Assembly: GCF_037042905.1 (NCBI RefSeq)
Contig: NC_087252.1
Location: forward strand, 2,544,001-2,608,000
DNA from: Lytechinus pictus
Taxonomy: Eukaryota
Direction: 5' to 3'
Length of the DNA: 64,000 bases
Program-made: the position numbers and the translations under genes
Notes under the pieces: generated by a model
The model's database searches: none
What the model saw: only the letters and a program-made list of their open reading frames with translations
What the model was told of the DNA's origin: nothing
In this document: piece after piece, positions 6,745 through 43,158 of the stretch
Layout of the letters: every line of letters starts with the position of its first letter
Position numbering within the stretch: position 1 is the first letter of the stretch

Positions 6745-6767
6745 AGTACAGTATATAAAATAGAATG

Positions 6768-11290: not shown

Positions 11291-11314
11291 CCAATAGTCT
11301 TGTCTGATGCTTAA

Positions 11315-11943
11315 AGGAGAATGAAACTCTTGGAGCAAGTTAGCTTTTGTAAAAGCAGAAAAATCAAAGAATAAGATCAACAAAAGTTTGAGTAAAATAG
11401 GACTAGCAATAGAAGAGTTATGAACATTTGAATGTCGAGATCACTAATGCTATGGAGATCCTTCCATTGGCAATGCGACCAGGATCTATGATGTCACAGA
11501 TGAACAACTCTCCCCTTTTGGACACTGAAAATATACCCCAAAACATCTCTTTTTGCTCATAATTGTAATCATATGACAAACGATTCATCAATGATATAAT
11601 GTTGTGAAACCTCTGTACTTGTCCTTTCATAAAGAGAACACCTCACCTTGTGATAGACTCTTTAAAAGTGAGAATATAAGTGAAATAAGTACTAAAGTAA
11701 TGAGGGAGCTGTACGTACTGAACTGGAAATACGTATTTCCAGTTCAGTGGTTGTACGTGTGTGACATCACAGATCTTGGTCGCATTGCCAATGAGAGGAA
11801 CTACATGGCATTAGTGATCTCAATATTCAAATGCTCATAACTTTCTTATTATTCATTCAATCTTCCTCAAACTTTCAACAATATGTTTCTGTGATTTTTC
11901 TCTTTGATATGGATTCAGCTGGTTTCAAGGGTTTCATTCTCCT
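11315..11943. mobile_element. Kolobok-like MITE with TTAA TSD
   Basis: TTAA|aggagaatgaaac ... gtttcattctcct|TTAA with long internal inverted arms. The same family recurs at 63575 onward. Confidence 0.85.
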
Positions 11944-12886: not shown

Positions 12887-13336
12887 GAGGCCGTTCTCAT
12901 TACGCTTTCTAAAACTAGTTTACTGGACACCGATTCAGGAAACCAGTTTGAAAGATTTGCTTTGCTAGCGTTCCCACTTGATCACACGAAAGTGGTTTTC
13001 TAAATCACTTCACGTAAAGCGCTCTTGTTGCTATGGAAACGCTCTCAGTGGGGTGACACGTTTCGCGCGAAATTCGGAACCACAGCATAGGCATTCTACA
13101 CCTGTTGTGTGGAGTAGTGCGCTCAAAATGTGCGAAGATCGCTTCCTGAAGAACGGTTGTGTCCTCACTTACGCTAAAACCAGTTTAACGAGGCAAAACG
13201 ATCTTGAAAACTACATCGCTAGGTGGTTTTCCAAACTGGTTTGGAGGATCGCTTCCAAGACCTCTTCAACCGTTCTCACTACGCGTTAAAGTAGTTTCCA
13301 CTTAACTAGTTTTAGGAACGTAGTGAGAACAGCCTC
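12887..13336. mobile_element. PIF/Harbinger-like MITE
   Basis: TIR gaggccgttctcattacgctttctaaaactagtt / aactagttttaggaacgtagtgagaacagcctc; flanks tga and tta. Confidence 0.75.
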
Positions 13337-15330
13337 TTAGAAGGATATAGAGGAGGAGAAGATGCCTTGGGAAGAAAAAGAAGGAGAAGAAGGAGGAGGA
13401 GGAGGAGAGAGAGAGAGAGAGAGGGGGGGGGGTAAATGAAGAAGAGGAGACACAGAAGCTGAGCACTCATTATACTTAAATTTAGAACTTCTGACACATT
13501 TTCCTGTTTGGCCTTTCTCTTAACCTGGAGCATTTACTTGACCCCTCAAGATGACCTGATTAAAATGAGTCTTTACAGGATTTATATTTTAAAGATATAA
13601 TCCTCTCTGTTCGTAGGACAGGGAAATCCAAGATATAGACTGAACTGCAGGTCACATTTCCAGCCAAGTCCTGCCTGTAGTAGTGTGTTTCTGTGATTAT
13701 TTCACTGATATCCTTTTGGGGCTGCGTTTTAAAACTTTCCTTCCCACTTTTCAGCTATTTAAGTCATTCTGGATTTGTAGTAAAACTTAATTTATGCAGA
13801 GTTTGCCAAACAAATGACTTTGCAATTACTGGTACTATATTTTATCTTTGCCTTCATGGTTACTATGAGAATGAAAATCTTAGTTTTAATTTGATGTTGA
13901 GCTCCATTTTTATCACAATTTCCATAATGGCACATTCACTGTAATTGATATTTCTTTATGAAACGGGGCCCCTGAACATTTAATCTTTGGAAACACTTGT
14001 TTTACTGTGAATGAATTTATGATACAATGTAATAATATTCTCCTGCCAGATGTTCATTTGTTCTAGCTGTTGGCATTAATATTCAAAGAAGGTCCGTTAT
14101 CGCATCTCATATCAGTAACTTCCATGTAGGTGCGCCGGTATGATGTTATCATGCAAGCAAGATGAAGGCGATAGCTTTCAGAGTTAAGATGCTGTACTGC
14201 CAAAAAGGAACTCAGAAAGGAACCTGAGGAAGATGTATTTATAGGTTAGGCTTGGGAAGGAGGTTTAACTCAAAATATGCACCTTTACATGAACACATAG
14301 TTAGGAGTATGTACATGTAGGAGTCTGTACACATCAAAGTGTACATGGAGTAAAAGTGAGCATCGTATCAGAGAGAATGATCACTTGTCCCAATGCAGCA
14401 GATGAAAACTATTGTATGAATTCAGATGTTGTATGGTCAGTAATATCTTGAAATATTGAAATTTAGGGCATTCATGTAATTTACCCATTGGGGAAACTAC
14501 TTGCTATTGATGCAGTTAATAAGTTTGCTCACCAAATTTGATTCACTTTTTTGGTCATAACTTCGGAAAGGTCTCAACTACTTGTATGTATGTCCTGTGC
14601 AGTCCTTTGTAAGATTCTGCTACACGAAAGACCTTTTACGTAGCAGTCTTTAAAAAATTGTTGAGCAAAATGCAATACAATCCAAGCAAAATTATATTCC
14701 ATGTGATTTCACAAATTCACAACTCCAACAATTCACTATATTCTTCTCTTGAATTTTCATCAAACCTTCAACAATTTTTTTCCTTCTAATATTTCTGATT
14801 TTCAGGGGGTAATCTTCTCCTTTAAAATTTGGGACATCATTTTTTCTGAAATGCCACTTTTTAGCAGTCCATTATCTTGTGTAGAGATATTTGTTTTTCC
14901 AGAGATACACTTTGAATAATTATGCCACGCAAGGGTGGCTTATAAACATGAACGCAATGAGGAAGAGGCTAATTCCAGAGTTAACCAAATGTTCTTCGCA
15001 TTTGGTACAATTTCTGCTACCGCAATTGAATTATCTAGGAAACATTGGGTAGACCGATATCTTAAAATAATCCTATACCACATATCTCTCTACAGGAACA
15101 TGTTTGGTAATGAACGTCTGCCTGAGAATGTTGTGGGAATTGATTCATGGGCGTGATGGTAGTGTAGTAGTGTCTGTTAATGGAATGGTTGATTGATAAC
15201 TTTTTTCATTCAGCCACCATGGTACAAGTACAATAAAAAGTATTTCTTGAGCTATGTAATACCTTGAGTGATTTATACATCAGAAGGTGCCCTTATGAAT
15301 AACCTAGTACTTTTTTTACTTATATTACTT

Positions 15331-15598
15331 GGGTGCATCGTGGTCTAGTGGTTCTGGCTCTCGCCTTTGAAACAGAGGGTCGTGGGTTCGAATCATAGCC
15401 ATGACATGTTTTCCTTCACCAAGAAATTTATCCACACTGTGCTGTACTCGACCCAGGTGAGGTGAATGGTTACCCGGCAGGAGAAATTCCTTGCATGCAC
15501 TGAGCGCCGGTGATGGTAGCTTGCACTAAAGCCGGGGTAATGATAGCAGCGCTTTGTATCCTCTTGCAAAAAGTGCTTTATAAATCCAGCTATTATTA
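15331..15598 (+). mobile_element. tRNA-derived SINE
   Basis: A box (tggtctagtgg), B box (ggttcgaatc), central gacccaggtgaggtgaatgg core and a (tat)n tail. Similar to 48985-49270. Confidence 0.85.
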
Positions 15599-16965
15599 CT
15601 TTTCATATTTAAACCTGGTTCAATGACAATTTTCCCTTGAGAGAAACTTCTACCCTGGGAAACCAGCCCCCCCCCCCCCCCCTGGACGAAGGAGTTGTCA
15701 TTTTCAATGTTAATAAGGTCACCTCAGTCAGAAGGACACTTATTCTGGGGACCACATCCAGGAGAGATATGTTTTGCAACAAAAATAAATTCTAGAGGGG
15801 GGGGGGGCATTGTTATCCTTCTGGGGAAGTTGTTCTGTTATGATTTAAACAATGTTTTTGAAATTTGTGTTTTCTTTTATTTCATTAGAGAAGTCTTCCA
15901 TTAGAATTAAAGTTCATTCCTCATATCCCACTCTGACTGGGGAAAACACATTTTATATTTTTGTCAAATCAGAGTAATACAAACAGTCTTTGTTACATTT
16001 AACTTTCAGATATATTTTTTTGGGAAAATCAAAATGATCAATATTCATGATATGAGTGACCTTTTTGACTATCAAAATTTATGAGGGATGGGTCTTGAGT
16101 TAAATAAAAACCAGTGGAAAATGCATGAAGTTAGATATTTATAGATTGGTCTACTTTCTATATCCATCCTATATCCAATTAACTTTGTCTCTCTTTTAAG
16201 GATTTCAAATGTTATTTTCACATTCTCTTACCTTTTCATAATCTCCACCTATATGTCTGGTGAGGCTATAGCAGAATCTATTTTAGAACTCCGTGTAGCA
16301 TGAAAATGACTCAGAAACTTCCGTGACTGTGTGGTGCTTTTTTATGAAAATAGCCGGCAACTGATCGATGACAGCACCGAGTGACATATATACCACTTCA
16401 CATGGGAATTCTTTAAAGGAATATAAACCGTGGTACTGGTGCATAAAAATATTAACTTTACACTCAGTCAGTGCCGTAATGAACAACACAATTTGAAGGG
16501 CTTAGATATGGCTTATCGCATAAAATTTATATAAAGTTGCGAGCGAGTGAAGCGAGCTAGCAATTTTAACATTTTTATTACAAAAATCCAAGTTTGTGAT
16601 AGGTTTTTACGTATTATTCAGAAAATGTCATATTTCACCATTCTTTTTTCCCCGTTATTTAACCTCGATGGTGACATGACTCAAGAGCCAATCAAATATT
16701 TCCATAAAAGTTTCTATGAACAGTTACTTTTTTTGCAGCCGAAGCTATTGCATGAACTACATTTGAGTGGAATGTTCACTACTCTGTCGAATAACGATGA
16801 TATCATTGGTCAGTGGCTGATCTATTCAGGTTGAACACAATACCATGTCTGGGGTAGTATGTTTTTTTTTAACAATATTCGGCCCCTCAAAACTGTTTGT
16901 GTCTAATCCGACTGGATCCTCACCTGATTTGTGGCAATTTTATCAGTTCATTTATGCATAGAAGC

Positions 16966-17122
16966 TAGTCTGCAGGCACAGACCCTGATTGGAACTTTGA
17001 TCAACAAGTGTGCCTCCACGCAAAGACTAGCACATACCAAACTTACTCCTTCAGTACACAAGGCATGAGTAGGCTGCACATTCAGACCCCTAACTCAAGT
17101 GAAGGGTTTGCCCAGCAGACTA
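16966..17122. mobile_element. TAG...CTA non-autonomous element with 9-bp TSD (AcademH-like)
   Basis: catagaagc|tagtctgc ... gcagacta|catagaagc. A second copy lies at 33712-33886. Confidence 0.8.
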
Positions 17123-17829
17123 CATAGAAGCCTTGATTTTTGCTAGCTATCAGCAAGGAAGTTTTGTTTTGAAGCAGAGGGAAATCAGGGATGCATAATT
17201 GAAGAGAAAGGTTTCAAGATGTTCTATATCACACTTTCGATGTAAATTAAGCTAAATGATAGCAGGATGGTATTTCATCAAACTGTTCATGAGCTACTCT
17301 TGACTTTATGATTGACTTTACAAACAACTGTGTTGTTGCGGGATGTGAAAAGTAGCCCCGAAATTAGCCTGCTTCAGACCTACAAATATATTATGGTATT
17401 TCCAATAACATTTCCATCAATTTCGATGGTTTGACTGTGCATTAAAGATTACTTTTCTGTTATGAAATGGTAGAGCAAGGATCTAGACATGTTCCATTGG
17501 AAATGACAGGACGTACCTGGAAAGTAAGAGAGGGAGAAAGAGAGAGAGAGAGAGAGAGAGATGGGAGAGAGCAGGCTTAGCAGAGTGGTTTCATGGTTGT
17601 AGCGGGTGGATTCGGATTCGGCACTTTGCCAGGGCCAGGAGTCTTAACCACAGAAAATGGGAGGTTTTCCCAATGTATGCCAAGCATAATGGCAAATCAA
17701 TTTGAGGTTTAGGAGATGGGTATCTACGATTGGTCCTGGGAGAGTTGCTGAGATACATGATAATCTGTCCGGGGATATGATGAGCGTGTCTCCGAGATGT
17801 AGTATCATCCCCTTTTCATATTAAAGTTG

Positions 17830-18086
17830 AAACTTGAAGCTTTTGGAAAGTATTGCTGAATATTTCCGAAATTGGAAATATGTCATTGATATGTTATTGT
17901 CAGAGTTGATAACATGAATATTTGTTGTAGTCCTTTTGTGCCTGCCGAGTTTTGCCAGTATTTAATTTGAAACTTAAGCTTTTCGGAAGGTATTGCTGAA
18001 TGTTTCCGAAAATTGAAATATGTCATGGATATTTTCTGTCAGAGTTGATAACTGTACATATATTTCATAGTCCTTTTGTGCCTGCC
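17830..18086 (+). repeat. Two-copy tandem duplication with a period of about 140 bp
   Basis: gaaactt..agctttt.gga.ggtattgctgaat...tagtccttttgtgcctgcc occurs twice. Confidence 0.8.
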
Positions 18087-18807
18087 TATTTGAAAAAAAA
18101 AAAATTGGGGGCTATAAACATATCACATGAGATTATTGTACACTGTACTCTAAATTATATGGAAAACCTAAAAGATTGATTTAGACAAGTATGAACATTG
18201 AAATTTGTAAGGGCAGGAGTTTTGTATTGACCAGAGTTATGAAGATTGGAAAGCAGTAGATACATGTATGTAATCCCCCTCATGAAATATTTTCTTTTAA
18301 AAACATTAATTTTTTTTGACATACAAACTTTCTCTTTCCTTTTAGAGAACACATGCAATATTGAAAAGAAAGAGTCATTTGGACAATACTTTTAATTTGT
18401 TCATTTTTTAATTAGTTTTCACTCTCTTTATCACATTCTTCACATCAATATATACAATAAATTATATGATTGGAAATCTACAAAATGTGACAAGCAACTG
18501 ATATATTAAGTGGTGTATATCATCACACATATTATCCAGAAAAATGAAAACCTGTTTTATATTTTGATTTATCAAACCATTTCATAAAAGAGTAAACTTT
18601 TAAACAGGTTAGCTGATGATCAAGTATGAAATTTGCACTTGAGTTTCAAAGAAATATGTTTTGATGCCTGATAAGATCAATTTGCAAACAATACATACTA
18701 CAAAGAAAAAAAGTCATTTGCATTTTCAAATCTTCATTAAAAAATCTTCATTTCGATATAGGTAATATGATCATGAACATAACCAATTCCAAACTGACTG
18801 TTTATAT

Positions 18808-19051
18808 GGTGACACAACATTTACTCCTTCAACATTTGCTCCGGTCTTAATATCTCAGAGGACATACATGTAGGTTTAGAGTTGGGATTGTAATAAAAAA
18901 GTTTTTAGTTCAGAATAATATAAAGATTAGGATTAGGCTTTATTTAGTTTGGTAGGTTAGACTTTATGTTTATCAGGTTCGATTTTACCCTTTGCGTCAC
19001 GTGCTGATTTTCCTTCGGAGCAATTGTCGCCGGAGCAAATTTCATGAAACC
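18808..19051. mobile_element. GG...CC MITE with a near-perfect 8-bp TSD (Merlin-like by TSD and termini only)
   Basis: gtttatat|ggtgacac...catttgctccgg ... ccggagcaaatttcatgaaacc|gtttatac. Confidence 0.55.
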
Positions 19052-19758
19052 GTTTATACCATTTTGAGATATGCAATCATGGTTTTGATTGGTCTGAAGT
19101 TTGTTTTGCTGGACACTGCAGAATTATTATGAATCACACAATGGAGCAACTACTTTCATTGCTCTGGACTCGGTCCTTTACTGAAATATTCTTTCTACTG
19201 CCCTGCAGATGGAGAAATACATTGTGTAGGTAGTATAAAATGATACATCAGTAGCACATACGTAATTTTGGCAAATTAGGAAGACTTCTGAACATTCTTT
19301 TGGAATATCTAACATTTCTTAATACAAATATAATCTCATTATAAGTAGCCTACTCTTTGCACATTATCATTTAGCACTTCTATTGCACAAAAGCATATAA
19401 TAGCTACATGTACTTCATTCTCAACAATATGTTGGAGACTTGAGCCACTCTGCTGAATTGTAAATGTACATATTTACAATTTATACACTTAGGTAGAAAA
19501 TGCTGTCATGTACATTGTACTCTGTCATCACTATGATGTCATATTTCAGCTTGTCCTACTGAAACCTTGTTGGTCCAAGTCCATGCTAAATCTTGAGTAG
19601 TTATAGATCTTCAGGCTATCAGCTGTAGGATTTAATAGTTCTTGGTACTTCAGCTGCTAAAGATCCAGTAGATCAAGTAGGTACTGACAGGAGCATGGTC
19701 TTCGAACCCCAATGGATTTCAAGAAGTTCCTTCATAGACTGTCCCAATCATTGCAGCA

Positions 19759-20688
19759 TCATGCTTTTTGTAAGAAGTGTGTTCTTGCCATATCAAATTC
19801 ACTGGTTGCATCCTTGTCCCGGGCATTCTTAATGCGCATCATATGGTTACTGACAGTCTTTGGGAGGGCACGGATGACACTTGATGGCGGATGGGTGGTT
19901 GTCTTCGCGGCTTTCATTGAGAATCCAGCCAGCCTTCGGCCCCCATACATGGAATGCTCGGTGTATTCAGAACTGGAGATGGAGTAGGAACGGGCATAGT
20001 AGCTCTGCTGGGTGGCATAGTCATTTGGCCTCCTTGCCGCTTTCTTAATGGCTTTCATGGCAATGTCATGTTCAGGTACTGTTGGCGGGATGTCAATGAT
20101 CAGAGGATCCGTAGCGGATGTGCTGTTTGCGTTGTTGGCATGGACACATCGCTTTGCTACATGTGCCGTGGTGATGTCAGGTTTCCTCGCATGCTGCATA
20201 GGTATGACTGTCTTTTGGATCACTGCTTGTGTTCTTGGGCTTGGTGGAACTCTGTTGTTTGGGGACGCTATCTTTGGGAGCGCCCTTTCCTTGACAGGTG
20301 GCCCTGGCTTACTGTACTGATGTTCCTTCTTGGGAGAGTTGTTCCCTCCTGATAGGCGAGGTGTTAGTGGTGTCTTCGGATTCCCATGGATTTCGCACAT
20401 CTGTTGCTGGCGTACACGTCTGACCGTTGCTGCAGCTCCGATGACTGCACGTCTTGTCTGCAGACACTTCCTCTGACAACACAATGCGAGTAACATGACC
20501 AGGATGAGAGCTACCACCACTCCACCAAGAATGATGGCCACCATTGTCACAGGGAGGCCGGTCTCGTTGAGTGACAGTGGTCTCGTTCTGACCTCCACAC
20601 ACTGGTCCCGAAGCACGGCATTGGTCTGGGTGTGGTTGACTAGAATGGTGCTGACACAGACTGTGTACTGGGAATCTGGCTCCAGGTC
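19759..20688 (-). CDS. Terminal coding exon of the same protein: end of FN3, transmembrane helix, cytoplasmic tail of about 240 aa
   Basis: Acceptor gtgtttttgcag|GAC, phase 0. The join gives the canonical FN3 string DFTLT|DLEPDSQYTVCV. TM segment MVAIILGGVVVALILVMLLAL is followed by CCQRKC; stop TGA at 19759-19761. Confidence 0.9.
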   Translation of the reverse strand, partial: DLEPDSQYTVCVSTILVNHTQTNAVLRDQCVEVRTRPLSLNETGLPVTMVAIILGGVVVALILVMLLALCCQRKCLQTRRAVIGAAATVRRVRQQQMCEIHGNPKTPLTPRLSGGNNSPKKEHQYSKPGPPVKERALPKIASPNNRVPPSPRTQAVIQKTVIPMQHARKPDITTAHVAKRCVHANNANSTSATDPLIIDIPPTVPEHDIAMKAIKKAARRPNDYATQQSYYARSYSISSSEYTEHSMYGGRRLAGFSMKAAKTTTHPPSSVIRALPKTVSNHMMRIKNARDKDATSEFDMARTHFLQKA

Positions 20689-21049
20689 CTGCAAAAACAC
20701 AAGAAAATGCACCAAAAGTGTCATTAGGCTCAGTGTATCTTGTATTTTTATATTGTCTTGAAATTAAAAACAAGGAACATTACAGGTAAACATAGCTGAC
20801 TGGAAGACCCATTAGAAGTAAACAGCAATGATTTCTAATTATCAAATTGTTAATGTTCAAGATACTCTGATTGGTTCATGTGGTTTCAACATATTTGTAA
20901 TGATACAAATATTCATATTAAAACTAGAATCCATACTATCTGAAATATGACCTATTGATTTCTCAAGATAGATGTTCCCTATTAAAAGGATGTATCAATA
21001 GAGCTACATATTTAGTAGTAATCTCAGAACACAATACTGCAAAGGTTTG

Positions 21050-21293
21050 CCTGCACATGACTTCCAGACTTTTTTCGTTATCCTAAGCCTTACGAACGAG
21101 TGAATGAGCCACTTATACTGGACTTAATAATTGTCTTAGTATTTAAATCAATATAGATTTATAAAAATATATATTTTCTTTAATCTTATTTATTTTAATC
21201 CAACAATGTTTATGAAGTCCAGTACTTGTTGGCTCATTCTTAAGGATTAGGTAACAAAAGCAGTCTGTTGGTCATGCGTTTGACCATGTGCAC
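21050..21293. repeat. Degenerate palindromic element
   Basis: tgcacatg...gaatgagcca...tactggactt vs aagtccagta...tggctcattc...catgtgca. Confidence 0.55.
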
Positions 21294-21706
21294 ATAATCC
21301 TATTGCAGTATTGCAATTTTTTTTACAGATATGTGATCAAGCCATCTCTAGGATTAAGACAAAATCCCTGGAGTGATTTAATCACCAAAGATCTGTTAGT
21401 TATAAAAACACAAAGATGGGGCCCCCATGGAAATCTCTTTTCATCTTCAAGAAGAAATGTTTCAGTTATTTTAAACTTTAGTGGAAATGATGAAGTGCAT
21501 GACCGTGATTCACGGATCACATTACCGATTGTGACACTGAAGGGGATGGTGTCCATTATAAGACAGTATGCAGTGATTGGTGGATAATGAGAATAAGTGA
21601 TGCCAGAGGAAGCCAGTTAGGAAACCCAGAGAAAATGTGTTTGACTTTGGAAGCAGAAAGACTTAAATCCAAACTTAATAAACCATTAGGAGTTCACCTA
21701 TAGGTG

Positions 21707-21945
21707 CGGAGGTGTTGTTGGTCAGTGGATAAGTCTGCAAACTTTGAAGTTTGAACCACAAATATCGGGGTTGAATTTCCTTCACAGACTGTCCTTTGTA
21801 GAGCATTTATCTGTCTGTACATTTGCAACTCTCCACCCAGGTTTTGACATTTTTAACGGGTAGGAAGTAAATCCTTGAATGCTTGAGCGTCTGAACAGGG
21901 AAGCCGTGCTAAAGCTGGCATTACCTTATGCAGTGCTTAGAAACA
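21707..21945 (+). mobile_element. Degraded tRNA-derived SINE
   Basis: tggtcagtggataagtct head, ctccacccaggt core and gcttgagcg...gctaaagc 3' part resemble the 15331 and 48985 copies. Confidence 0.55.
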
Positions 21946-24900
21946 TTGCACATGACATAATTCTACATAACATAATTGAGAATTCGGGCATCACACAGTG
22001 TTCTAGCTGTACACCCATTTTAGTGGTGGTAGCTATTTCACGGCATTTTGGGTTTTTTTCAGCCAGAGTTAGTGGTCTTAAATTCAAAAGTGAAGGAAGA
22101 TCAATGCAGTGGCAATCTCACAAATATTTGAAAATAAACTAATATTCATCAAATATAAGAATGTTTAATGCAAATTATGCAAACGAAATAAGATTAAAGA
22201 TGAAAATGAATACAAGTGCCATTCTTCTCTGCAAGGAGTTATTCAAAATTATTAACTTCAATTATAACTTATTATTTAAAATTAAAAGTGGACGGAAGCA
22301 GTGATTTTTTCATGATGAGTTGTGGTCAGAAATCTTCTGTGCCGGTTGCACCTGACCACTGCTGTCCATAGCTATAACACTGCACACAACAATATGAACA
22401 ATATGAACATCTACTAACTGCTGATAGAAACTTTCTCATATGTGAACCGACCCAATATGTTTCTGAGAGCTTCACATCCTCCTTGCTCTGAAAAGTGCAA
22501 TATTGAAACCTGTCATCAATTAACATGATAAGTTTCCATGGAAAATTTCCCCTCAGCCAATGGAATTTGATTTTACCTGTAGCTTATAACAGCTATTGTA
22601 ACTTTGTTGTATTTAGAATTTTGTGGAAATTGGCCCAATGTAATGATAATGATATATGCAGTGGTTGAGTTTGAACTTGAATGGAATACAAGGGCAAGTT
22701 TCCCCAAAACATTATCATGGGATACATTGTGGTGATCAAATATCCATGTGTTCATGATAAGGACAAACTGAATACATGTGTGACTTCGATAGACAACTTG
22801 ACAAGTTTGAAGATATAATAAGGAAGAGGGATGCACAGTAGTAATGGCCTTTTCCTGATATCCCATATGGTTTATGTAAATCAATAATATGAATAGACTT
22901 TCAGGGAACAGTGTTATTATCATTACAGTTATTGATATTGAGCATGTAGTTGGTTTTTATTCCATTTCTGTGTGGATACGGTTCTCAATCTTCATTTCAT
23001 TATTTATTTATTGAAACATCCTTTAACATTTATTTATTCTATTTATTCCATTCATTTATTATTTTTATTAAATTTCCATTCATATATCAATTTGTTTCTT
23101 ATTTTGGTATTTTCTTAGTTTATAAACACAAATTATCTTGTTATTTACTTTTGTATATCTCTCCATCAATTTTATGTTAGAAGTGTTTATTTTTATTGTA
23201 TATTTTAATTGTTTTTTTTTTCTTCAGAAAAATGATGATTTGAGAACAATAGCTCCAGACATCCTCTATAGCAAATAATATTGTCTGGACCCTCATTATT
23301 TTATTTCCAAACACAATTTGCACTATCCCACATGGTATTGGTTATAAGATCTGTTGATAAAAAAATCCTGTGCCAAAAATAACCAAACCATATTAATGAT
23401 TTTGTTGTCCAACACAGAGATTGCCTGTACTGTGTTTATTTTAAGGAATGATCCCCGCTAGGGACAAAGAAACAAAAGTTGTCCGTGGACACGTCATCTC
23501 GCCCGAAAATGACTTGTCCCGCGGAAGATTGAAAATGGCAACATTTCGCTGTGGGGTTCCGAAGAGGATGAGCCGTGTGGTCCCAAGCCGGCCTTTTTAG
23601 CGCTGTCAGAGGTTCTATGTTCCGTTGTCATGGTAACGGGAAGTTGTTGCTCAGTCAGTTGCTACTGAACCTGTAACCTGTCTGCAGCATTTAAAGGCCT
23701 CCTTGCCATTCTATTGTCAAATTCGTTTTCCCCTCCCGTGTTGTTAAGTCTGACAAGGTTTTGTAAATGGTAACTGTCATTAGTTGCATATTGGTTATAT
23801 CTTTTCTTGTTTGAAAGAAAGAAAAATGGAAAAATACCCCCCAAAAAGGGAAGAAAATTTGATTACCTGAACTACACATACATGAATTTGCTACATGTCA
23901 TGAAAATGTTTCAAGGGATTGAGGTACACGTGCATGGAATTTGGAACATGCTCAGTTGCTCAAAGCGTTATGAAAGAAAAACTTGTTTAAACATTCAAAA
24001 CTTGATCACAAAGTCATGAACTTGGGAAAAAAATGTTGAATTTAGGTTTAGTCAAGAGATCTTTTCTGCCTCTTTTAATACAAGATCAAGATCTTAAAGA
24101 TTGATTTTATGTTTCATAAACTTTGTCTATATATGTTCCCCCTTGTTATTTTTTTCTTCCTTTAATAATGAACACACTCATTTTGGGAAGTTGGTTATAT
24201 TTGAGCTTCAGTACTTTGTTGGTTTCACTTTCGGATCACCAATCTCGAGTATGAAGTGAAACACTTTTAATGATGCAGGCATGTATCCTCTCAAGGAAGT
24301 GCCCAACCGATTGACATTTACCAAATAAATCTGATCTTATTTTCTTGTCCTTTGCATGCACTCAACCCTGTAAGAAATAGACCTACCCATTTTAATCTCC
24401 AATGCTTTAAAGTGGATGCCTTATAAAGATTTCTCTCTTTTTTTAAAATCATTTCACAGATTTTCACGTGCTTGCACTATTTTGCAAACTTACCCCGAGA
24501 CTCTGGAAACAGTTTATTCATGAATTGCAGATTTGTAGTGATAAGAGTTCATTTCTAATATGAATACCTCTTTTTGCTTCCTCTGCCCTTTCACATTAGT
24601 CATTTATATATCATCTGCCTAGGAACATCTATGTTCTAAAATAGAGTAAATTGAAAATAGATACTAGATAGTGTTATGATAAGAACGATGGGTCAAATAA
24701 CCCTCAGTTTTCCAAGCAGTACATTTTTATTTTCTTCATAATATACAAAATGTTCAAGTTCAAAGAGTCATCCCAAAGTTGACTTTTGATGAAGGATATC
24801 ATCTGATGGCAACTGTATGCGTCAATCTCAGCCGACCCATGTGCACTAACTTGCTATTTATGAAATGACTTGCCATAAAGTTTCTGCCCATTGAATTTGT

Positions 24901-27900
24901 ATGCCTGTTACCATGGAAACAAGTGAATTTCTGAAACATTTTTTTATGCCTAATGATTTTTTTTTTCGACAGGAGAGTGTTTTCCTAACCTGCACAGGGT
25001 AGTTTTGAAGCTTTCAGAATGAATTATTTGAACATATTTCATGAATACCACCACAACTACCTCCATAGTCATCAATGGATATATGCTATGACCATCTTGT
25101 TTTTTCCTTTCCCTTTTCTCTCCTTATTTGGTATATTGTTTAAAATCATGAGTACGTTGTTCTCTACCCCCTCTCCCTGTAGTGCTGCAATGACGTTCTA
25201 GAATTTGTCTGATAATGTCTTTTGTTGTATCCAATTGCTATGCATTTTTGTATTCCAAACACACAAATGCAGTTTGAATATACCTTTTGCAGAACTTTGA
25301 AATATTTCCTGTAATTCCCCAAAACTACTAATCAACTTTGCTAGGTGAATTTTTCTTGATTTATGCCTTTGAACTGGAAGAAGCAATTAAGAATCGACAA
25401 AATTCATCTTGCAAAGTGATTCATCCCCTTATTCTGCGGATGGCCGTCTGGAATAAACGCTGACAAGCAAAATTAGATTGGTAGATAAAAATAGAGTGTC
25501 ACGTTAAGTTTATCAAAATTTTGTATTGCAGCATAGGGTCTGTAAGGAAACTTTGGAGACATTGAGGGATGTGGGTATATGCCCTCGAGAATACCAGAGG
25601 ACACTATTATTTGCAAAATATATATTTTGGTACAAGGGCAGCAAATATAGATGCAGATGTCAAATATAGATGTTGCGTCATACATCAAAATTAATGCATC
25701 TACTTGGTAAATATCCTGATTCATTATTGATTGACATTGGAGATAAATAAAAGTGAGATATTCAAATTGTTATAAAGAAGGCTAATACTTAAATCTTTTC
25801 ATGAAGGTGGTGATTTTCTTCCTGTAATCACGATGAAATGAATTGAGTTTGGGCTCTTAATTTACTTTCTATGATTATAACTTATGGTAACTTATTATGC
25901 ATGCAAATAATGAAGTATATAGATATTACTGTGATTATATTATTTTATCAAAAAATTAAGTAAATCATGATGTAGAAAATACAATTAAAATGAATCCAGG
26001 TTCTCCAAAGTTAAGCATTGGATTTGATTACATCATGCCATAGGTAGCCATGAGAACATAGATCTCTCAATCTAAAGAAGATGTAGATGTAGCGCAATAA
26101 AATAGTAATTATATTATTTAAGTTACAATATGCAATTGCTATGGACACTACACTAGCTTCTGCATCGTTCTGGGCACCCATTTATCACTTGGGTGTAGAG
26201 TGGCAAATCTCAGATTACTCCTTGCCAAAGGATGCTGGTGCCATGGTGGGATTCAATAATAACACATTAAACCATTTCCACTAATACCAGTTATAAGTAA
26301 TAAATACAAGAGCATTCTCTTAAGTTTATTATGTTATTAGTACATGGATATGTATAGCCCATCCTTTACTATCACCATACACAATTATATTGAACAAATT
26401 TGAGTCTGTGAAAACAATCTGTAAAAGATCTGTTTCTAGATGACATCGAATTCTCAATTGCCATATAGCTGATTGAGACATTAAAGTAAATGCATTTAGT
26501 TTTACCAAGATAGTGTTAACAATTTTCTTCAAAATGGCATGGATGACAAACAATGACTGTGCAAAGAGGCACATTAAGCAACCAAAGTGTTAATAGCAGT
26601 GCAGGGAAATGGGTTTATTTATATATTTATATATATATCATGATTTAATCCGGTATAATCCATCTTTGACCCTTGGTATTTGATTGTCATCCCCCTAGAA
26701 CCCCTTGTCTAGTGTTTGTTTTGCGGTAAGTTTGAGCTTGTGTCATTCACCAGGTATAAAACTCTAGCTGTGGTTTGGAATTATTTCCTTCCTTTCGCTT
26801 AAGTGGCCCCCTACTGGTATATATTTATATAGGGCTAGAGTAAATGCCTGATAGTGCATATATGCTGTTGTATTGTGTTCCCTTTATTATTATTATGCTG
26901 ATCGATCTCTTTGCAATTTATTGAAATTCTGCAGGACTTGAATTTCAATATATTTCAATATATTGAAAATATATTTTCAGGGCAATGCCACTTCAAAATA
27001 TGAAAAAGGGCACAGCAAATATCCTTGGCCAAAAAGAGGTGCATTGAGGACAATCAATAGGCCATCCACGGCCATGACCTTCGCTGACCTTGGATTATTT
27101 TAAGCTGTGATGCTCATTTCTGGCATGAAGACATCTGACTTTGCTTGTCAAAGTTTCATTTTTCTGTTTCTCTTATTTTTTTTCTTTGCACAAATTAATG
27201 TTTTTACCAAAGTTTGATTCCCATTTAATTAAGTATTGATTTAAAGGCATACAAACCGGCAGCCTTAAGTCCTTAACTGATATCTGGCCAGCTTCCTGAC
27301 CCATATTGCAACAAACTCAGCAGTGTAGTCTTGTAATATAGGCCGCCTTGAATTATACCAAACCGTATTGGTCACTTTGCTCCCCCTTTATTAAAGTATC
27401 CTTCTTCCATTTTAGATATGTTTTTAACAGTATTTTTCCATTTTGGATTGTCATTCATTTGATAATATTTCTGTTGTATGGTTTTGACATTTTATTTCAG
27501 CCCTCTAATTGCATTCTGCATGTATTTCAAAAATTAAAATATGAAAAGGAAGTTTTGACACCTTACATTTAACTTCCATTCATAGGGAAATGAGAATTGC
27601 AATGTCACTCTGTCAAATTTGAAAGAACATAAGTACCTCAATCCCGGCCATGCCCAGCCAAAGATTTGCGCTTCAATTTGTTATCCAATTTTCAAAGCCA
27701 CCATAATCAGATTTGGATCCATGGGGGAAGAAGGGTTATTTCCGTCTACCTTTTGCAGAGTCCATCTGTCAGTGGTGCGCCAGAAATATGATACATGTGC
27801 CTAGAATTGTACTTCAGTTCTGCAGCAGATGCTACAGTGACAATAGGTCAGTTTTAGATTACACACTAATCTAATTGAATGCAAGGGTCTTTGTAGCATG

Positions 27901-28357
27901 TGTGGATAGGACAGTCTACTTGGAATTCCCCTTTTCATATCTTGGAAATAATACTGCAATGCTTTTGTAGCACTCACGAGATGCCACTTCTTCCTCTTGG
28001 GTCACTACACAGTTCCTGCCAAGTGGAGGGTACAAGATGCCACTACGGACAGGTTACCGTTAAAAATAACATGCAGGGCCAAAGTTACTATTATGGTAAC
28101 TTTGCCATCCAATGGTAACTACCATGGTAACAACACTCATCAGCCAATCAGAATCAAGGATTCCATAATAGATACCATTGGATGACAAAGTCACTTGTAT
28201 GCAACTGGACCCAGATAAAGTTGACCCTTCTCCATGCCACCCAATTGAATGTAAAATACAACCATTGGTCTATTAATTAAACTTAATGTTATGTCCAAAG
28301 ATTCTGTCCAGAAGAGATTGGAAAAACGTGAAAGGAGAGTAGTAGGAGAGTACTTAC

Positions 28358-29461
28358 TGTTAATGTGAAATCAGCAACTGATGGATGAATGAATGGGCTG
28401 TAGAAAAAGGTATCATATCCAAACTTGTTGTACTGCACAATAAATCCTGATATCTCCTCATCAATTGCAGGAGGCACCCTCCAAGAAATGGATGCCCTCG
28501 TCGTTGCAACGGTATCAATGTTGATGTGCTGAGGAGGGGAGATGATGACCTCACAACGTTCGCCGAGGTAGAGATGTCGGCACTCGCATTTGAATCCTGT
28601 AAAAGGGTCGTTGGTGCATACCCCTCTATTTTGGCACGGATTTTGAGCACAGGTCATGTAAGGCCTCGAAGGAGTGGGGCCAGAATGTGGATGCCGAGGC
28701 ATTGTCGGTCGTCTGTTAGGCGGGGTACCGGGCCGTCTTGGGGTCGTGACCCTTGGACGAATTGGGTCAATGATGACAGGTCCTTGTCCACGTCCAGGGG
28801 TGTTCACACCTGGTGTGGATGGCCTATTGGGGCGGTTGACACCAACATGAGGGGATCGTGGAGTTGCTGGCGGACGTGGTGTCTGAGGTGGGCGTTGTAC
28901 CGGTGGTTGCACCGGTGGTCGCTGCACCGGTGGTTGCTGCACAGGTGGTCTGTTGACTGGTGGTCGTTGCACCGGTGGTTGCTGCACAGGTGGTCTGTTG
29001 ACTGGTGGTCGTTGCACTGGTGGTTTAAAAGGGTTGATTGGTGCTCTTCCGGTGTTGCCCGTCCCTGTGTTGGGGTTGGTACCTGGTACCACACCTGGTA
29101 CCCCACCAGGTTGCACTCGTGCCCCCGGCTGGTTCCCCACTCCTGGTCGGTTTGGTAACCAGGGGTTCCGTGGGGGCACCCGAGGAGGAGGAGGGGGAGG
29201 AGGATTCACTGGGATGCCACGATTAGCAGGGTGCATGGGATCACCTGGCAGAGGAAACCCTGGGAGTGGATAAAAACCGGGCATCCCAGGAACAGTAGGG
29301 TACGTCATTCCTACTGACGCCCAAGGGTCAAGAGGGTCTATGGGCGGTTGTACACCTTCAGACACAAACCCTCCATTAGGTGGAATATCCCCTATAAACT
29401 GTGCAGCTACCTGTAAACAAAGGTGTGTCAAGGATACAGTAACAAAAACTCTCATCTCCAT
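28358..29461 (-). CDS. Coding exon 1 of an uncharacterised type I membrane protein: signal peptide, Pro/Gly-rich region, EGF-like domain, N-terminal part of an FN3 domain
   Basis: Long GC-richer ORF. The ATG is in GCCATGG context with an in-frame TAA upstream, followed by a hydrophobic N-terminus (MEMRVFVTVSLTHLCLQVAAQ). It contains a six-Cys EGF (CAQNPCQNRGVCTNDPFTGFKCECRHLYLGERCE) and an FN3 start (SPPQHI...ASISWRVP...GFIVQY). Donor ACA|gtaagt, phase 0. An alternative acceptor (ttgtttacag|, exon from 29410) cannot be excluded. Confidence 0.9.
28887..29023 (-). repeat. Coding minisatellite with 15-bp units and a 45-bp higher-order repeat, encoding PPV(Q/N)(R/Q)
   Basis: PPVQRPPVNRPPVQQPPVQRPPVNRPPVQQPPVQRPPVQPPVQRPP in the translation. 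Confidence 0.9.
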
Positions 29462-30169
29462 GGCTATGTAAGTCTTTTACTAATACAGGGGAACACACTC
29501 TTGAGGATGTGGATGTTGATCTGATGCTTCCGCTCAAATTGTTTCCGAATCATTCAACGTAGCAGAGTTCTTATCAAGATCACCTTCACTTTTAGCGAAG
29601 TCAATAAGTCATGGATGAATGCATTGGGGTCCCTCACATCTGAATCATGGATGCAGGTTCATTCATCTAACTTCTGCAGCACTCCCAATTTAGCATGTAT
29701 TCCTACCCCACACTCAAGGAATCTTGATCATCTAACTTCCACTCCTGAGTACTTCACCAAGTCTGCCAAGGTACCTTAAACAGCTCAGCTAGAAAGACGG
29801 TACAGTTTGCACTGGCAACATTGCGATCAGATCCGAGTCTTTCACCAGACGTTTTCAAGCTCTCTCATCTTTCTAGCTGTAAAGCCTTCAATCTCTCGTC
29901 TTGCAGGGGCTGTTTTCTTCCTCCCGGGATAAACCAAATCAAACTTCTGACTCAGACGAAGTTATAGTTCCACTGCGTTGATTCCTGATTGTTGCTCTTT
30001 TGCTTTCTCTTCCTTCCCTTGGATGGCAGCACTCCTATCGCAATCATCGATCTTAGTCCCTGCTTGCTCGTCGAAAGTAGACGCTGCCTGCTATGGTGTT
30101 TCCAATTAGAGGATTATCCAATTCTTTGTTGGGAGGTTTGGAAGCAGTGATAATGATCTTTAGTTGAAC
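29462..30169 (-). other. Probable 5' UTR part of the exon carrying the EGF/FN3 gene start codon
   Basis: Strong minus-strand acceptor ttttgtctaccctctttacag| just above 30169. Composition stays repeat-free and GC-richer down to the ATG. A candidate upstream donor AAG|gtaagt lies at 31700. Confidence 0.4.
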
Positions 30170-32463
30170 CTGTAAAGAGGGTAGACAAAAATAGTGCATG
30201 AATTTCTCTGGATGCTTTGTGAAATTGAAATACATGTAGATGTGAATCTCAATTTTAGAATTGAATGTGTGCAATAACACGTGTTACAAGAAACTAAACT
30301 ACAGTCAACTGCCACTATGAATTTCAAATTTGCTATTTGATTTGAAATGATAGGTTATCAATTCAAATTTCTCAATGCTAGCCGAAGTAAAAGAGCAGTC
30401 GATGTTTCAAATTTTAAATAAAATGAAAGGATTCAAATTGATTTTTTTAATGTAGAATCAGTAACAGGTTTCTTGCAACATCCCTCCTTTTCAAAGATCA
30501 TTTGTTTTTGTTAATCGATTGTCTTCAGTTGCCAGTGAATCCAGTTGTATATACATGCATTTATCTTTTGACCTAATGTAACATTAATACTTCATTCACA
30601 CTACATGTAGTTATGATTGAATCTACCATTCTATTAAACCCGTTGAATACTGAATTGTGTGATTCCTATGAACTTTATACAGGTATCACCTGTTTCAGTT
30701 GGTAATGAGTTAAATACACTTCAGGATTTCCCCACTGCCAACATTAGGTAATCTTTTTTTACAACATTCACATTTTACATTCAAAGAAACACCAAAGGCC
30801 ACTTCAAGGTGGATGGAGATACAGCACATGGCATTGATTATGTATTTCATTAATATGTTTTCTTTTATATATCATTTATCAAATTATTAATTTTGGTTTT
30901 AATAATTAATTTATCATAAATTCAGTCATCATTCTAGTCTATATTCATCAAACAAACATGTTAAACCGTAAGAAAAATATTCCTCTCCATGCAGTCAGTT
31001 TTGGAAAAGCTGACCGATGTGGGATAAAGTATTGTAATGGAAATACAATCAATATTTCACTTGATAGAATGAATCATAATTGCCCTCCAAAATTGTGTGA
31101 GATGGAATCCTGCATTATTAAATTTAGTATCCTTTTGAGGTTGAAAACTATTTCCCAATGGGTATTTACCACAGACTTTTTGGCAGTGATAGTTTGTACT
31201 CGCGTGGCTTGCCAGAAACTCTGCTGAAGTTTAAAGACATCAATAATAATTTTCTATTTCAAGTATGCACTCTCAATTTTCACTGCCCTTGTCAATATTA
31301 TTTCAGTATACAGGAAAATACCTGTTTAAGTAGCTTAAATCAAGTGTTTAGTAGAGTAAGTTTGGGCAGTATCTCTAAAAATATTTGCTTCTTTATAAGA
31401 ATAATTTCCAAAATTCTTGCTCTTATAAGGTTCACCTTTATGCAATTTATTAAAATAAAAAAGAAATCATTTTTTAAAAATTAAATGTGTAAAAATACAT
31501 ATTAAACTTTGTGTTAGAAGATTTCAAAAATTCCAAAATGAAAAGGAAGGTTTGTAATGACCTTGAGGTAGTATTATAATGGACATTGGAAGGAATATTT
31601 AGTCAGTCAGATCACTCTGTTTTTGTTGTTACTGTTTTTAGGGTGTATATCTTGATTAAGAATGGTATATCAAACAAAAGTCAAAGTTAATCCACTTACC
31701 TTTAAATTGCATTATTTCCTTTGTTTATCACTGAATAGCTTTATCCTGTTTAAACTTCCTTCACAAGTGGTATCTTAATATTGAATTCAAATGAAATTAT
31801 TTCTTTCGATACAGTGTGATCAGCGTGATCAGCGCAGTTAAGGAGCTATGGGATAAGTTGTGGGTACAGGTGCCAGTCCTTCGATCTTAAACCAACGCAG
31901 TCACAGACTATCAGCTTGCTATTCTAAGCGTACAGCTCATATCCCCTCCTCGAGATCTTGCTCCTTCACGGTATGCCTTCAACCGATCAAATGATCTCCC
32001 TGTCGCCTCGGCAAAGAACCTTACTTGACCCGCACCAGAGCTCCCCCTGCCTCAGCTTCCTGCCTTCGATACTGAACCCCCCTCCTGGAACATGGACAGA
32101 CCGATCGTCTGCCCTGTCGGCGCATGCGTCACCTTTGAAGGAAGCGCATCATTGGATCGCTCCATGATGTGTCTTTAGGGGAGGGTTGGCGTGTTGGAGG
32201 GGAGGGGATGTCATGTTTATTTAAAGGTGGGTGGAGTTGGGTAATGTTTTCATCGTGTCCACCTACGTGAGGATCATGTGGGAGGCTATAGGCGATGTCT
32301 TCTTGAGTGATGGGCTGAAGATAGTCCAGTGGCCTTGGAGGGGTTGAACTGTGATTGGTCATTTAAGGCTATTTTCGTTAATAGACACCTACTTGATATT
32401 TAATTTTACAATGATTTTTTTTTTCTTTTCCCCTCATCTACTTCATCCAGCTTTCTTTCTTAA

Positions 32464-33037
32464 AGGACAAGTCCACCCCAACAAAAAGTTGATTTGAATA
32501 AAAAGAGAAAAATCCAACAAGCATAATGCTGAAAATTTCATAAAATTTGAAAATTATGATGTTTTAAAGTTTTGCTTAATTTCGCAAAACAATTATTATG
32601 CACTTCCCGGTGGGTATGCAAATGAGGAGACCGATGACGTCATCCACTCACTATTTCTTTGTATTTTATTATATGAAATAGGAATATTCTATTTTTTCTC
32701 CTCAATGTCAAGTGAAACAACGATTATTTTTTCTCTGAAATAGTGGAATGAGCATTGTATATGATTCAGTCAAGTTGGTCTTTATTGTCAAATCTATAAA
32801 AAAGATGAAATATTGAATAATTCAAACAATAAAAAACAAAAGAAATAGTGAGTGAGGGACATCATCGACTGTCTCATTTGAGTTGTGCATATCACTATTT
32901 TGTGAAAAACAAGCAAAACTTTAAAATGCCATAACTTTCTTATTTTACATCCGATTTTGATGAAATTTTCAGCGTTTTGCTAGTTTGATTTTTCTCTATT
33001 TATTCAATACAACATTTTTCCGGGGTGGACTTGACCT
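32464..33037. mobile_element. Kolobok-like MITE with TTAA TSD
   Basis: TTAA|aggacaagtccacccc ... ggggtggacttgacct|TTAA with long inverted arms. Confidence 0.85.
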
Positions 33038-33099
33038 TTAATGCAGTATTTACTTCCAATCCTGTTAAATAGTTTTCATAAAAGTTAAAGGATAATTTG

Positions 33100-33170
33100 A
33101 ATGAATCCCACTCATGTCTAAATATGTCTTCAAATTTTGAAGACATATTTAGACACGAGTGGGATTCATT
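33100..33170. repeat. Near-perfect 71-bp palindrome
   Basis: aatgaatcccactcatgtctaaatatgtcttcaaa-t-tttgaagacatatttagacacgagtgggattcatt, with one mismatch. Confidence 0.9.
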
Positions 33171-33711
33171 TTGGCCGTCTGCACTTTCAGTCACCCTTGC
33201 GTTGGTTTTGCTAATTAATCACCAGCTCATGAGATTAAATATGGAACATGATAAGATATTTATGTACCAAGTGCATTAATTAAATTGATTTCAATTTCTC
33301 TGTTTAATTTCTCCTTCTCTCTTTCCCTGCTATCTCTGTTTCTCAATATTATTTCGCCATTTGCTTTTTTGATATTTTTATCTCTATTCTCTATATGTAG
33401 ATACCATGGGCTGGAAATGTCTTAATCCATTTTCAAATTGAATACAGAACCTTTTTTGGATGATTAGAGACCAAGCACAGTTAGTTTAAAAACACATAAA
33501 ATAATACATATGAGAACAAAAATATGGCAAATTTCTTGTCATGGAATTCACATACATTGATTTGACGCGAATTGATGATAAGAAATAATACTTTTTTTTT
33601 TCGATTGGCTATTACTATTACTACTGCAGGTTTGGTACTAAGCTGTCAATTTGTGCACAATAAATTATTTGTAAAACATTTACAATGAATTTGCTCGTCA
33701 CCCAAGTTATC

Positions 33712-33886
33712 TAGTCTGCAGGCATGGACCCTGATTGAAACTTCAACAAGTGTGTCTCCATGCAAAGACTAGCACATACAAAACGTGCTGTTTCAATTCT
33801 GAGCGAGACGGCCTTCAGTACACTAGGCATAAGTAGGCTGCACATTCAGACCCTTAACTGGAGGGAAGGGTTTGCACAGCACACTA
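33712..33886. mobile_element. TAG...CTA element, same family as 16966-17122, 9-bp TSD
   Basis: caagttatc|tagtctgcaggca ... cagcacacta|caagctatc (8/9 TSD match). Confidence 0.78.
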
Positions 33887-35177
33887 CAAGCTATCAGTCC
33901 ACATACTAGATGGCCAATATTTGCAAGACAACTCAACTTCATCATCAAAACTTGAGTCTTTCTAAGGAAATCAAATCTAGCATTTCAAACCTGGATTAAT
34001 CGAAAGCGGAAGAACTGGCTCGCTTTTCTTGCCAGCATTTCTGCGATAAGACTTTCCTGAAGTCCTTTGTGTTTTCATGCGATATGGAATTGCCTTTTGT
34101 CTTCCTGTGAGAAGCATATTGGGTGCTGACTTTGACTTCCTGAGCTCAACAACTGCTTGCAAGAACCCTGCAGGCCTGTACAAAGTATATACAATTAAGA
34201 GAATCTGACAATTGTAGGTTTAAGCCATTGAGTCCTTGCTTTCCAGTGTGAAATACATGTCATAACTCCTATTGGATCAATGTGTCTACCTAGTCTAAAA
34301 GTCCAGCCATCATTCCTACTAGTACATTATTAAGATTTTCACTTACAAAATGTGCAGTTGTATCTAAAAGTATCCAAAATGTGCTTACTAGCAAGAAGCC
34401 TAAAACTTAAAAGCACGAATGAACAATTCTTATTACATTTGTCTACCTGACTGTATAATGCTTGAAAGGTTAAACCTAATGTCAAAACAATGTTTGAAAA
34501 GATGAAAAAATGAAATTTTCACAAATTTCACCTCTCCTTTGTTTACCTCTCTTTCCTAATTCTGCCAGTAGCCCTTCTATCACCCCTCAGTGCAGGAAGC
34601 TTCCCATTCTAGTCCTTACGTTCTTCATTTATTATCTTGAAATATGATCTGATAGTGGTTTATTGATAAGCCAACAATGCTGCGATTGCTGAAATGAAAG
34701 AGTGGAGATAATAATGGCTTTATGATGATTGAAATGAACAGGATTCTTGCCCTCTAGAGAATTGTGCCTGGAATTAGAAATGATGTCATTTCATGTACTC
34801 GGCATGTTGTGGGCAAGTAACAATAACAAAAATAAACATTCTCTACTTCTATGTTTATTACCAATATTACGGCAGTTGGGGAGGGCTGGGCCTCCCAAAA
34901 ATATTCCATGACGAAGAAAAAAAAATGACAAAAATTAGAAAAATTAAGAATAGGGAAGGACAAGGGTGCAGTGTGATTATAACATTATAATCTATCACAA
35001 AAAATTCTAAAAAGGCCAATTTTGCTTTCTCACTTTGCTTGCTCTCAACTTTTCCGAAATTTTTCCTTATCATACTGTGCTCCTCAAAATTGTTGACTCT
35101 TTATGCCACTGACGACTGCTGCTGCTGCTTCTGCTATTACCACACTTCTGATATTAGTACCACTACTTCATTATCTT

Positions 35178-35390
35178 ATACTACTTCTACTACTAACTAC
35201 TACTACTACTACTACTACTACAACTACTACTACTACTTCTACTACTACTATTACTACTACTACTACTACTACTACTACTATTTCTACTATTACTACTACT
35301 CCTATTACTACTACTACTACTCCTACTATTACTACTACTACTACTACTACATGTACTACTACTACTACTACTACTTCTACTACTACTGAT
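35178..35390 (+). repeat. (TAC)n microsatellite
   Basis: Read directly. It explains the poly-Y, poly-T and poly-S ORFs. Confidence 0.95.
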
Positions 35391-43157: not shown

Positions 43158-43158
43158 T

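Follow-up and report, generated by a model that had tools for sequence, protein, structure and literature searches.

What kind of cell-surface protein is encoded by two large open reading frames on the minus strand of a 64,000-nt stretch of the Lytechinus pictus genome (contig NC_087252.1, positions 2,544,001 to 2,608,000; hereafter the window, to which coordinates without a contig name refer), and what might this protein do? An initial annotation, made from the letters of the sequence, had joined the two frames (28289-29476 and 19759-20763) into an orphan membrane protein. We found that they belong to a three-exon gene whose product carries one EGF domain, one FN3 domain, a transmembrane helix (TM), and a long tail ending in a conserved motif. 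The protein belongs to an echinoderm-wide family, and its orthologue in Strongylocentrotus purpuratus is listed in the published record as enriched in primary mesenchyme cells (PMCs). The reading that we favour, with a confidence about evenly balanced, is a non-catalytic adhesion molecule or co-receptor on the skeleton-forming mesenchyme cells, a variant of the vasorin/LRIT-type cassette without leucine-rich repeats (LRRs). The gene already has a catalogue entry, and none of its domains is unusual; the new findings are the phylum-wide family, a tail motif that had not been described, and the nesting of the gene in SID-1. The nesting, the tail motif, and the first exon had all escaped the initial annotation.

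Gene structure and domain order of the encoded protein

Joining 29461-28358 to 20688-19759 on the minus strand gave a protein of 677 aa with a single terminal stop, identical at 677/677 residues to RefSeq XP_054760242.2 (‘uncharacterized protein LOC129266417 [Lytechinus pictus]’). The join removes intron 2 (7,669 nt, phase 0, GT-AG, GTAAGT...TTTTGCAG) at 28358|20688, exactly as had been proposed, and this junction was present in contigs from all five contig runs (X1, X2, X3, X15, and X18; two studies); the RNA type of these runs is a guess, yet their contigs skip two GT-AG introns. A second junction, 30169|31700, occurred in the same five runs and gave a total of three exons, the first of them non-coding. 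Thus, the coding join of the initial annotation stood, and its exon set lacked exon 1 (31700 to at least 32053). The 5′ untranslated region (UTR) is at least 1,062 nt long. The features of the gene are as follows.

31700..32053, minus strand: exon 1, non-coding (CT..AC joint in X2, X3, X15, X18, and X1 (record 4); contigs reach 31916-32053, and the upstream end is a minimum)
30170..31699, minus strand: intron 1, 1,530 nt, GT-AG (contig junctions)
29462..30169, minus strand: 5′UTR part of exon 2 (contigs)
29402..29461, minus strand: start codon and predicted signal peptide, aa 1-20 (hydropathy, N-termini of orthologues, model helix 2-21)
28658..29401, minus strand: distal Pro/Arg/Gly-rich region of low model confidence, about aa 21-268 (composition, model)
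28553..28651, minus strand: EGF-like domain, aa 271-303 (Pfam PF00008, cysteine spacing)
28358..28540, minus strand: first part of FN3, aa 308-368 (Pfam, model)
20689..28357, minus strand: intron 2, 7,669 nt, phase 0, within FN3 (contigs, frames of other echinoderms)
20578..20688, minus strand: second part of FN3, aa 369-405, with invariant C379 and C398 (Pfam, alignment)
20479..20553, minus strand: transmembrane helix, aa 414-438 (hydropathy up to 3.17, model helix)
19762..20478, minus strand: basic cytoplasmic tail, 239 aa (composition; mostly low confidence in the model)
19765..19875, minus strand: conserved C-terminal motif, aa 640-676 (profile match)
18940..19761, minus strand: stop codon and 3′UTR (contigs; AATAAA at 18944)

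The gene is real, and it is under purifying selection, because 17 of the 19 allelic differences listed in the coding sequence were synonymous (four table rows are not included in this tally). Upstream coding exons, with LRRs or otherwise, were not found, and the spliced upstream exon is non-coding. The 5′UTR contained 14 upstream ATGs, compared with 20.6 in shuffled sequences, i.e., fewer and not enriched. The notion that the signal peptide is an intron read-through product (an acceptor-like AG lies at 29411) was rejected: no such joint was listed and the contigs read through the site, a test limited by the tendency of contigs to drop rare forms. In the portion examined (about 6%) of each of the raw RNA runs X19, X20, and X21, no depth fell on the exons, which is at most a weak hint of restricted expression, and the run search listed no RNA run as carrying the gene. 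Low-depth contigs at 23225-28386 (intron 2) in X15 and X18 may represent unspliced RNA of the gene or of its SID-1 host, or DNA. Directly upstream of exon 1, a high-copy repeat occupies 32460-33040, and its depth was very high in all runs.

From the N-terminus, the protein consists of a predicted signal peptide, a 248-aa Pro-rich region, the EGF and FN3 domains, a 10-residue linker, the TM, and a 239-aa tail. The N-termini were hydrophobic in all nine full-length orthologues compared. The Pro-rich region (31% Pro, net charge +20) is likely disordered according to the structure model. Within it, a 15-nt tandem repeat at 28875-29036 encodes a PPVQR-like unit, whose copy number varies between species and between two versions of the RefSeq model (677 and 682 aa); the corresponding region in Diadema is built on a different repeat unit. 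The term ‘stalk’, initially applied to this region, was wrong, because it is outermost in the ectodomain, distal to EGF-FN3, and does not hold that pair away from the membrane.

The single EGF domain and the TM proposed at the outset were both recovered: Pfam PF00008 matched aa 271-301 with 27.4 bits (cut-off 21.5), and hydropathy placed the TM at aa 414-438. The cysteine spacing of the EGF domain is 4-5-9-1-8, and its best matches among solved structures were Notch EGF repeats. The Pfam fn3 profile scored 37.9 bits on the joined L. variegatus orthologue (cut-off 25), against 18.7-21.9 bits when only the first half was scored. Therefore, intron 2 splits one FN3 domain, which the two exons rebuild, as the initial annotation had it. 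In a model built from 18 sequences, EGF, FN3, and TM had pLDDT values of mostly 60-90, and values <50 marked the Pro-rich region as well as most of the tail; an earlier fold from two sequences was unusable (pLDDT 41). A motif scan of the L. pictus protein detected no PPxY, NPxY, or RVxF motif, no O-fucose or O-glucose consensus, and no furin site.

An echinoderm-wide family with a conserved C-terminal motif

Members of the family were identified in all five echinoderm classes (echinoids, asteroids, holothuroids, crinoids, and ophiuroids), the sea star being represented by an exon-3 product only. Word-indexed searches first returned sea urchins only. The best 150 of the 572 matches of an exhaustive search were mostly EGF or FN3 arrays, and the family-like ones included sequences from Antedon, Acanthaster, and Holothuria; a profile search added Amphiura and Anneissia (five matches among 7,998 candidates scored). 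Identity to L. pictus from EGF to TM was 98-99% in Strongylocentrotus and L. variegatus, 86% in Diadema, 48% in Amphiura, and 38-40% in the crinoids and Holothuria, with 38 invariant positions across nine full-length sequences (38-99% identity). C379 and C398 in FN3 were invariant among the family members aligned. Genomic open reading frames of other echinoderms (P0019, P0035, P0036, P0169, P0030, and P0178) break at the same FN3 residue; therefore, intron 2 is ancient. The L. pictus protein has all the marks of the family, namely the EGF-FN3-TM core, the invariant residues, and the FN3 intron.

The length of the Pro-rich part varies widely: echinoids and the brittle star have 240-253 aa, whereas two crinoids and the sea cucumber have 39-42 aa. 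The family core is therefore EGF-FN3-TM plus the tail. The tail measures 169-241 aa in the nine full-length members and is 73.6% identical between L. pictus and Diadema. Its middle part cannot be aligned between classes; the last 40 residues can, and a 41-aa stretch there is 61% identical between L. pictus and the sea star. A profile made from four non-echinoid sequences scored 62-67 bits on 11 echinoid-type tails, and no protein outside the family exceeded 1.5 bits among 178 stored proteins. The motif is conserved across four classes, matches no Pfam family, and occurs in one copy in the L. pictus genome; such conservation suggests that it may bind one partner.

No orthologue outside echinoderms was found among the best 150 of the 572 exhaustive matches or by the word-dependent searches, which is not proof of absence, because 422 weaker matches lie outside that list and the other searches need shared words. 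A metagenome scan likewise found no relative. The search for paralogues in the L. pictus genome returned only generic EGF matches; the exon-3 core and the tail motif matched their own locus only (few candidates were scored), and the Fn3_ELFN profile gave nothing above its cut-off. A 906-aa EGF frame on another contig (C11, L020:2954-5674) was rejected as a paralogue, being a single open frame that encodes a plain tandem EGF array. Two near-identical models lie on one chromosome of L. variegatus (LOC121420480 and LOC121420451), and two models lie on different contigs of D. antillarum; either pair may reflect duplication or assembly redundancy. A second echinoderm EGF-FN3-TM layout was seen in P0084 (Acanthaster, ‘fibropellin-3-like’), with six EGF domains, one FN3 domain without the cysteine pair, and a TM.

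Relation to known proteins and candidate function

The S. purpuratus orthologue is Sp-Fn3/Egff_1 (SPU_011180, WHL22.516341, LOC100888644), as linked by name in supplement S1 of PMC12588293; its protein (P0009) is 88% identical to that of L. pictus overall and 98% identical over EGF-TM. The same supplement classes the gene as ‘Adhesion_IgFN3Receptor’, and its name is a placeholder. In supplement file 14 of PMC5859501, it is a ‘PMC DE gene’ among about 420 PMC-enriched transcripts, and the same paper gives it a DNase peak that is lost in PMC-less embryos. Supplement 3 of PMC5831733 places it among 901 skeletogenic candidates, and its homologues occur in brittle star, crinoid, and sea star; it falls within the 494 candidates common to four classes (PMC5831733), and Fn3/Egff_1 was on the brittle-star Nanostring panel (PMC5831733, supplements 1 and 3). 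The PMC-enriched and 901-candidate listings are not independent, because the same PMC data supplied part of the latter. The main texts of PMC7814545, PMC8180256, PMC4009615, and PMC2909932 do not mention the gene, and searching the literature by ten accessions or by architecture yielded no functional study, the name Fn3/Egff_1 not having been searched in full text.

The structural comparison pointed to receptors with LRRs. In an Atlas structure search with the crinoid EGF-FN3-TM segment, LRIT proteins occupied rows 1, 3, and 6, vasorin rows 2 and 8, LRFN row 4, and FNDC5 row 5. Vasorin (VASN/SLITL2), a structural neighbour, is a type I protein with one EGF domain followed by one FN3 domain and a TM, as is the L. 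pictus protein, and its traits also include binding of TGF-beta or Notch1. According to PMC6288187, vasorin combines 11 LRRs with a single EGF domain, a single FN3 domain, a TM, and a tail of about 80 aa, and it is shed by ADAM17. The L. pictus protein differs in that a Pro/Arg-rich region stands in place of the LRRs, the tail has 239 aa, and an intron splits FN3; vasorin was compared through this layout and the names of structure clusters. No Pfam LRR was detected in the full-length family members scanned, and no LRR-like open frame occurs on the strand of the gene in the 144 kb around it. The protein was not filed as a vasorin/LRIT/LRFN member, because this defining LRR test failed.

A single juxtamembrane FN3 is shared with LRIT, LRFN/SALM, ELFN, and FLRT, in which a cysteine pair in the last two FN3 strands is a hallmark. 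The invariant C379 and C398 occupy these positions and may form a disulfide, and Pfam Fn3_ELFN scored 12-13 bits, below its cut-off of 27, so that an FN3 of this subtype is a possibility. Unlike that group, the L. pictus protein has neither LRR nor Ig domains and possesses an EGF domain. FNDC5/irisin and FNDC4 also have a single FN3 and a TM and were the top feature match in both Atlas searches (0.86-0.87, a lead only); however, they comprise about 200-240 aa without an EGF domain or Pro-rich region, and the L. pictus protein has no match to DUF4808 (PF16066). The 766-aa protein P0081, with seven EGF domains, an FN3 domain bearing the same cysteine pair, a TM, and a PPAY motif, aligned at a probability of 98.4 over 131 columns. 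Its N-terminus shows LRR-cap-like cysteine motifs by eye and no Pfam LRR match, and it is a possible intermediate between vasorin-type proteins and the L. pictus family.

By analogy, the L. pictus protein may work as vasorin/LRIT/LRFN-type receptors do. The membrane-proximal EGF-FN3 pair would bind a neighbouring receptor or matrix protein, as in vasorin-, LRIT-, and LRFN-type proteins, and the distal Pro/Arg-rich segment would be a lineage-variable cationic add-on that contacts acidic matrix or sulfated glycans. The 40-residue C-terminal motif would dock one cytosolic partner and so link contacts made outside the cell to trafficking or the cytoskeleton. The initial proposal of an orphan adhesion molecule or co-receptor fits, since no well-described family is matched in full and the orthologue is filed as an adhesion receptor in supplement S1 of PMC12588293. 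Its companion statement, that there is no named family, held for the lack of a full family match and failed in that the protein is the vasorin cassette minus the LRRs and the gene carries the name Fn3/Egff_1 in supplements with published expression listings.

Several observations weigh against an adhesion or co-receptor role on skeletogenic cells. The hydropathy of the predicted signal peptide is weak in L. pictus (nine-residue mean of 1.68 versus 1.8-3.4 in the orthologues). The Atlas TM-scores (by query) were 0.44-0.62, with predicted models on both sides and several values too low to name a family from, and are leads only. Searches of solved structures with the L. pictus model returned only generic FN3 domains (best Z 14.1, many ties); no entry of an LRR-FN3 family was listed there, which excludes nothing. 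The crinoid tails lack the C-terminal motif and have only a short YFLPR-like end in common. None of the 12 supplementary files of PMC13200730, its PMC list with log2FC>2 among them, contains the L. variegatus orthologues; therefore, enrichment in PMCs may be modest or restricted to certain stages. The gene is also not named in the main text of the spicule-matrix proteome paper, and the literature covered gave no binding partner, no localisation, and no knockdown phenotype.

The same absence from the L. variegatus marker list would suit a general or neural adhesion molecule, similar to the LRR-FN3 synaptic proteins, for which the PMC listing would reflect minor expression. LRIT and LRFN, the nearest predicted structures, are neuronal, and the conservation in all classes is consistent with such a role, as is the frequent antisense nesting of neuronal LRR transmembrane genes in other genes described in PMC3565204. 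The PMC-enriched listing and the PMC-dependent chromatin peak in PMC5859501 argue otherwise, and we consider this explanation unlikely. The membrane-tethered EGF-type ligand of the initial annotation was not supported by comparison with EGFR-ligand precursors. In these, the EGF domain adjoins the membrane, whereas FN3 intervenes in the L. pictus protein; their cysteine spacing and the Arg before the sixth cysteine are not matched by the 4-5-9-1-8 EGF, whose own best matches are Notch-like, and the orthologues have R, Q, N, or L at the position of that Arg. A shed EGF-type ligand is unlikely. More broadly, the ectodomain might be released by an ADAM-type protease as a soluble ligand or growth-factor trap, as suggested by the ADAM17 shedding of vasorin with the same EGF-FN3-TM order (PMC6288187) and by the stretch of about 10 residues between FN3 and TM. 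We regard such a precursor as improbable: besides the unlike spacing and the unconserved Arg, no R-x-K/R-R site is present, and the long tail with its conserved motif favours a membrane-bound role.

P58-A and P58-B, which have basic, Pro-rich ectodomains and are not known to have the EGF-FN3 core, offer another comparison, made here by description. They are transmembrane proteins of the spicule matrix and are needed for skeletogenesis (PMC4094399). A structural protein of the biomineral membrane, whose ectodomain (net charge +20, 31% Pro) shapes or enters the mineral, would also accord with the PMC listing of the S. purpuratus orthologue in PMC5859501. However, the Pro-rich part is nearly gone in the crinoids and the sea cucumber, the conserved core is EGF-FN3, and the spicule proteome paper does not name the gene in its main text; the chance of such a role appears small. 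A true echinoderm vasorin orthologue, with the LRRs lost in the echinoderm ancestor, is very improbable. The order EGF-FN3-TM, the vasorin clusters at rows 2 and 8, and the alignment with P0081 agree with this origin, but LRRs are missing from the family members scanned and from the 144 kb around the gene, the tails have 169-241 aa versus about 80 aa, an intron splits FN3 in the L. pictus family, and no vasorin was among the sequence matches listed.

The gene matters for echinoderm skeletogenesis: the gene network behind this process is a model, and most of its surface effectors are uncharacterised. The gene is a single-copy, receptor-like gene, found in all five classes and on a PMC-enriched listing, in a species used for genetics, and its core and tail motif are now defined for mutation.

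Location within a predicted SID-1/SIDT intron

The whole three-exon gene sits antisense within a predicted SID-1/SIDT intron of 48,980 nt (GT-AG, GTAAGT...CTGTAG, phase 0, frame continuous), as derived from the genome and the profile. Plus-strand matches to PF13965 (SID-1) flank the window at C8:2538428-2543110 and C8:2608880-2609017 (C8 being the contig that holds the window), with profile position 390 ending about 900 nt to the left of the window and position 392 beginning near 48088. The SID-1/SIDT gene spans the entire window (C8:2505676-2610083); a signal-peptide-like frame near C8:2505700 is a candidate for its first exon. All six SID-1 matches over the cut-off in the genome fall in this locus, the sole SID-1 locus found. 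Five SID-1 exons lie in the window from 48079, three of which match PF13965 alone and two of which were assigned from phase and splice sites.

1..48078, plus strand: predicted SID-1/SIDT host intron of 48,980 nt, which begins about 900 nt before the window (PF13965 positions 340-390 on the left, 392-421 at 48079)
48079..48181, plus strand: SID-1/SIDT exon (PF13965, E 4e-4)
59077..59150, plus strand: putative SID-1/SIDT exon (phase and splice sites; no Pfam match alone)
62282..62328, plus strand: putative SID-1/SIDT exon (phase and splice sites)
62941..63046, plus strand: SID-1/SIDT exon (PF13965, 30.5 bits; acceptor 62941 or 62944)
63429..63539, plus strand: SID-1/SIDT exon (PF13965, E 9e-5)

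A comparable position is indicated in Paracentrotus lividus, where the mapping code ‘I’ presumably means ‘inside a reference intron’. In supplement S1 of PMC12588293, transcript PL09992.1 (Fn3/Egff_1) is mapped to Pliv03432 (Sidt1) with this code, strand not given; thus, the nesting in SID-1 is probably common to L. pictus and Paracentrotus. The same supplement assigns three more unnamed P. lividus transcripts (PL09339, PL09372, and PL09908) to Sidt1, the code being i or I. According to PMC3565204, nested antisense genes are common; therefore, the nesting in SID-1 is context and not mechanism, and the position in the intron is likely old and passive. The same source describes LRRN, LRRTM, and LRTM as small adhesion-type genes lying antisense in an intron of an unrelated host, similar to the gene studied here; the host in the present case is SID-1/SIDT, and nesting is not evidence of kinship. 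For SID-1/SIDT editing in sea urchins, the arrangement means that deleting a large part of this locus, or counting RNA over it without regard to strand, would also affect the nested gene.

Upstream of the nested gene and tail to tail with SID-1, minus-strand exons at C8:2622400-2644800 belong to a gene with WD40 and coiled-coil parts (Pfam gives WD40 only), which we take to be CFAP44-like. In human as well, CFAP44 lies close to SIDT1, in the order BOC-CFAP44-SPICE1-SIDT1, and the arrangement would then be an old microsynteny. BOC, which has Ig domains and three FN3 domains, was set aside as a positional equivalent of the nested gene. Inside the WD40 gene, on the minus strand at C8:2630335-2632431, a 699-aa open frame is followed by a GIY-YIG-like frame; together they presumably represent a Penelope-like retroelement.

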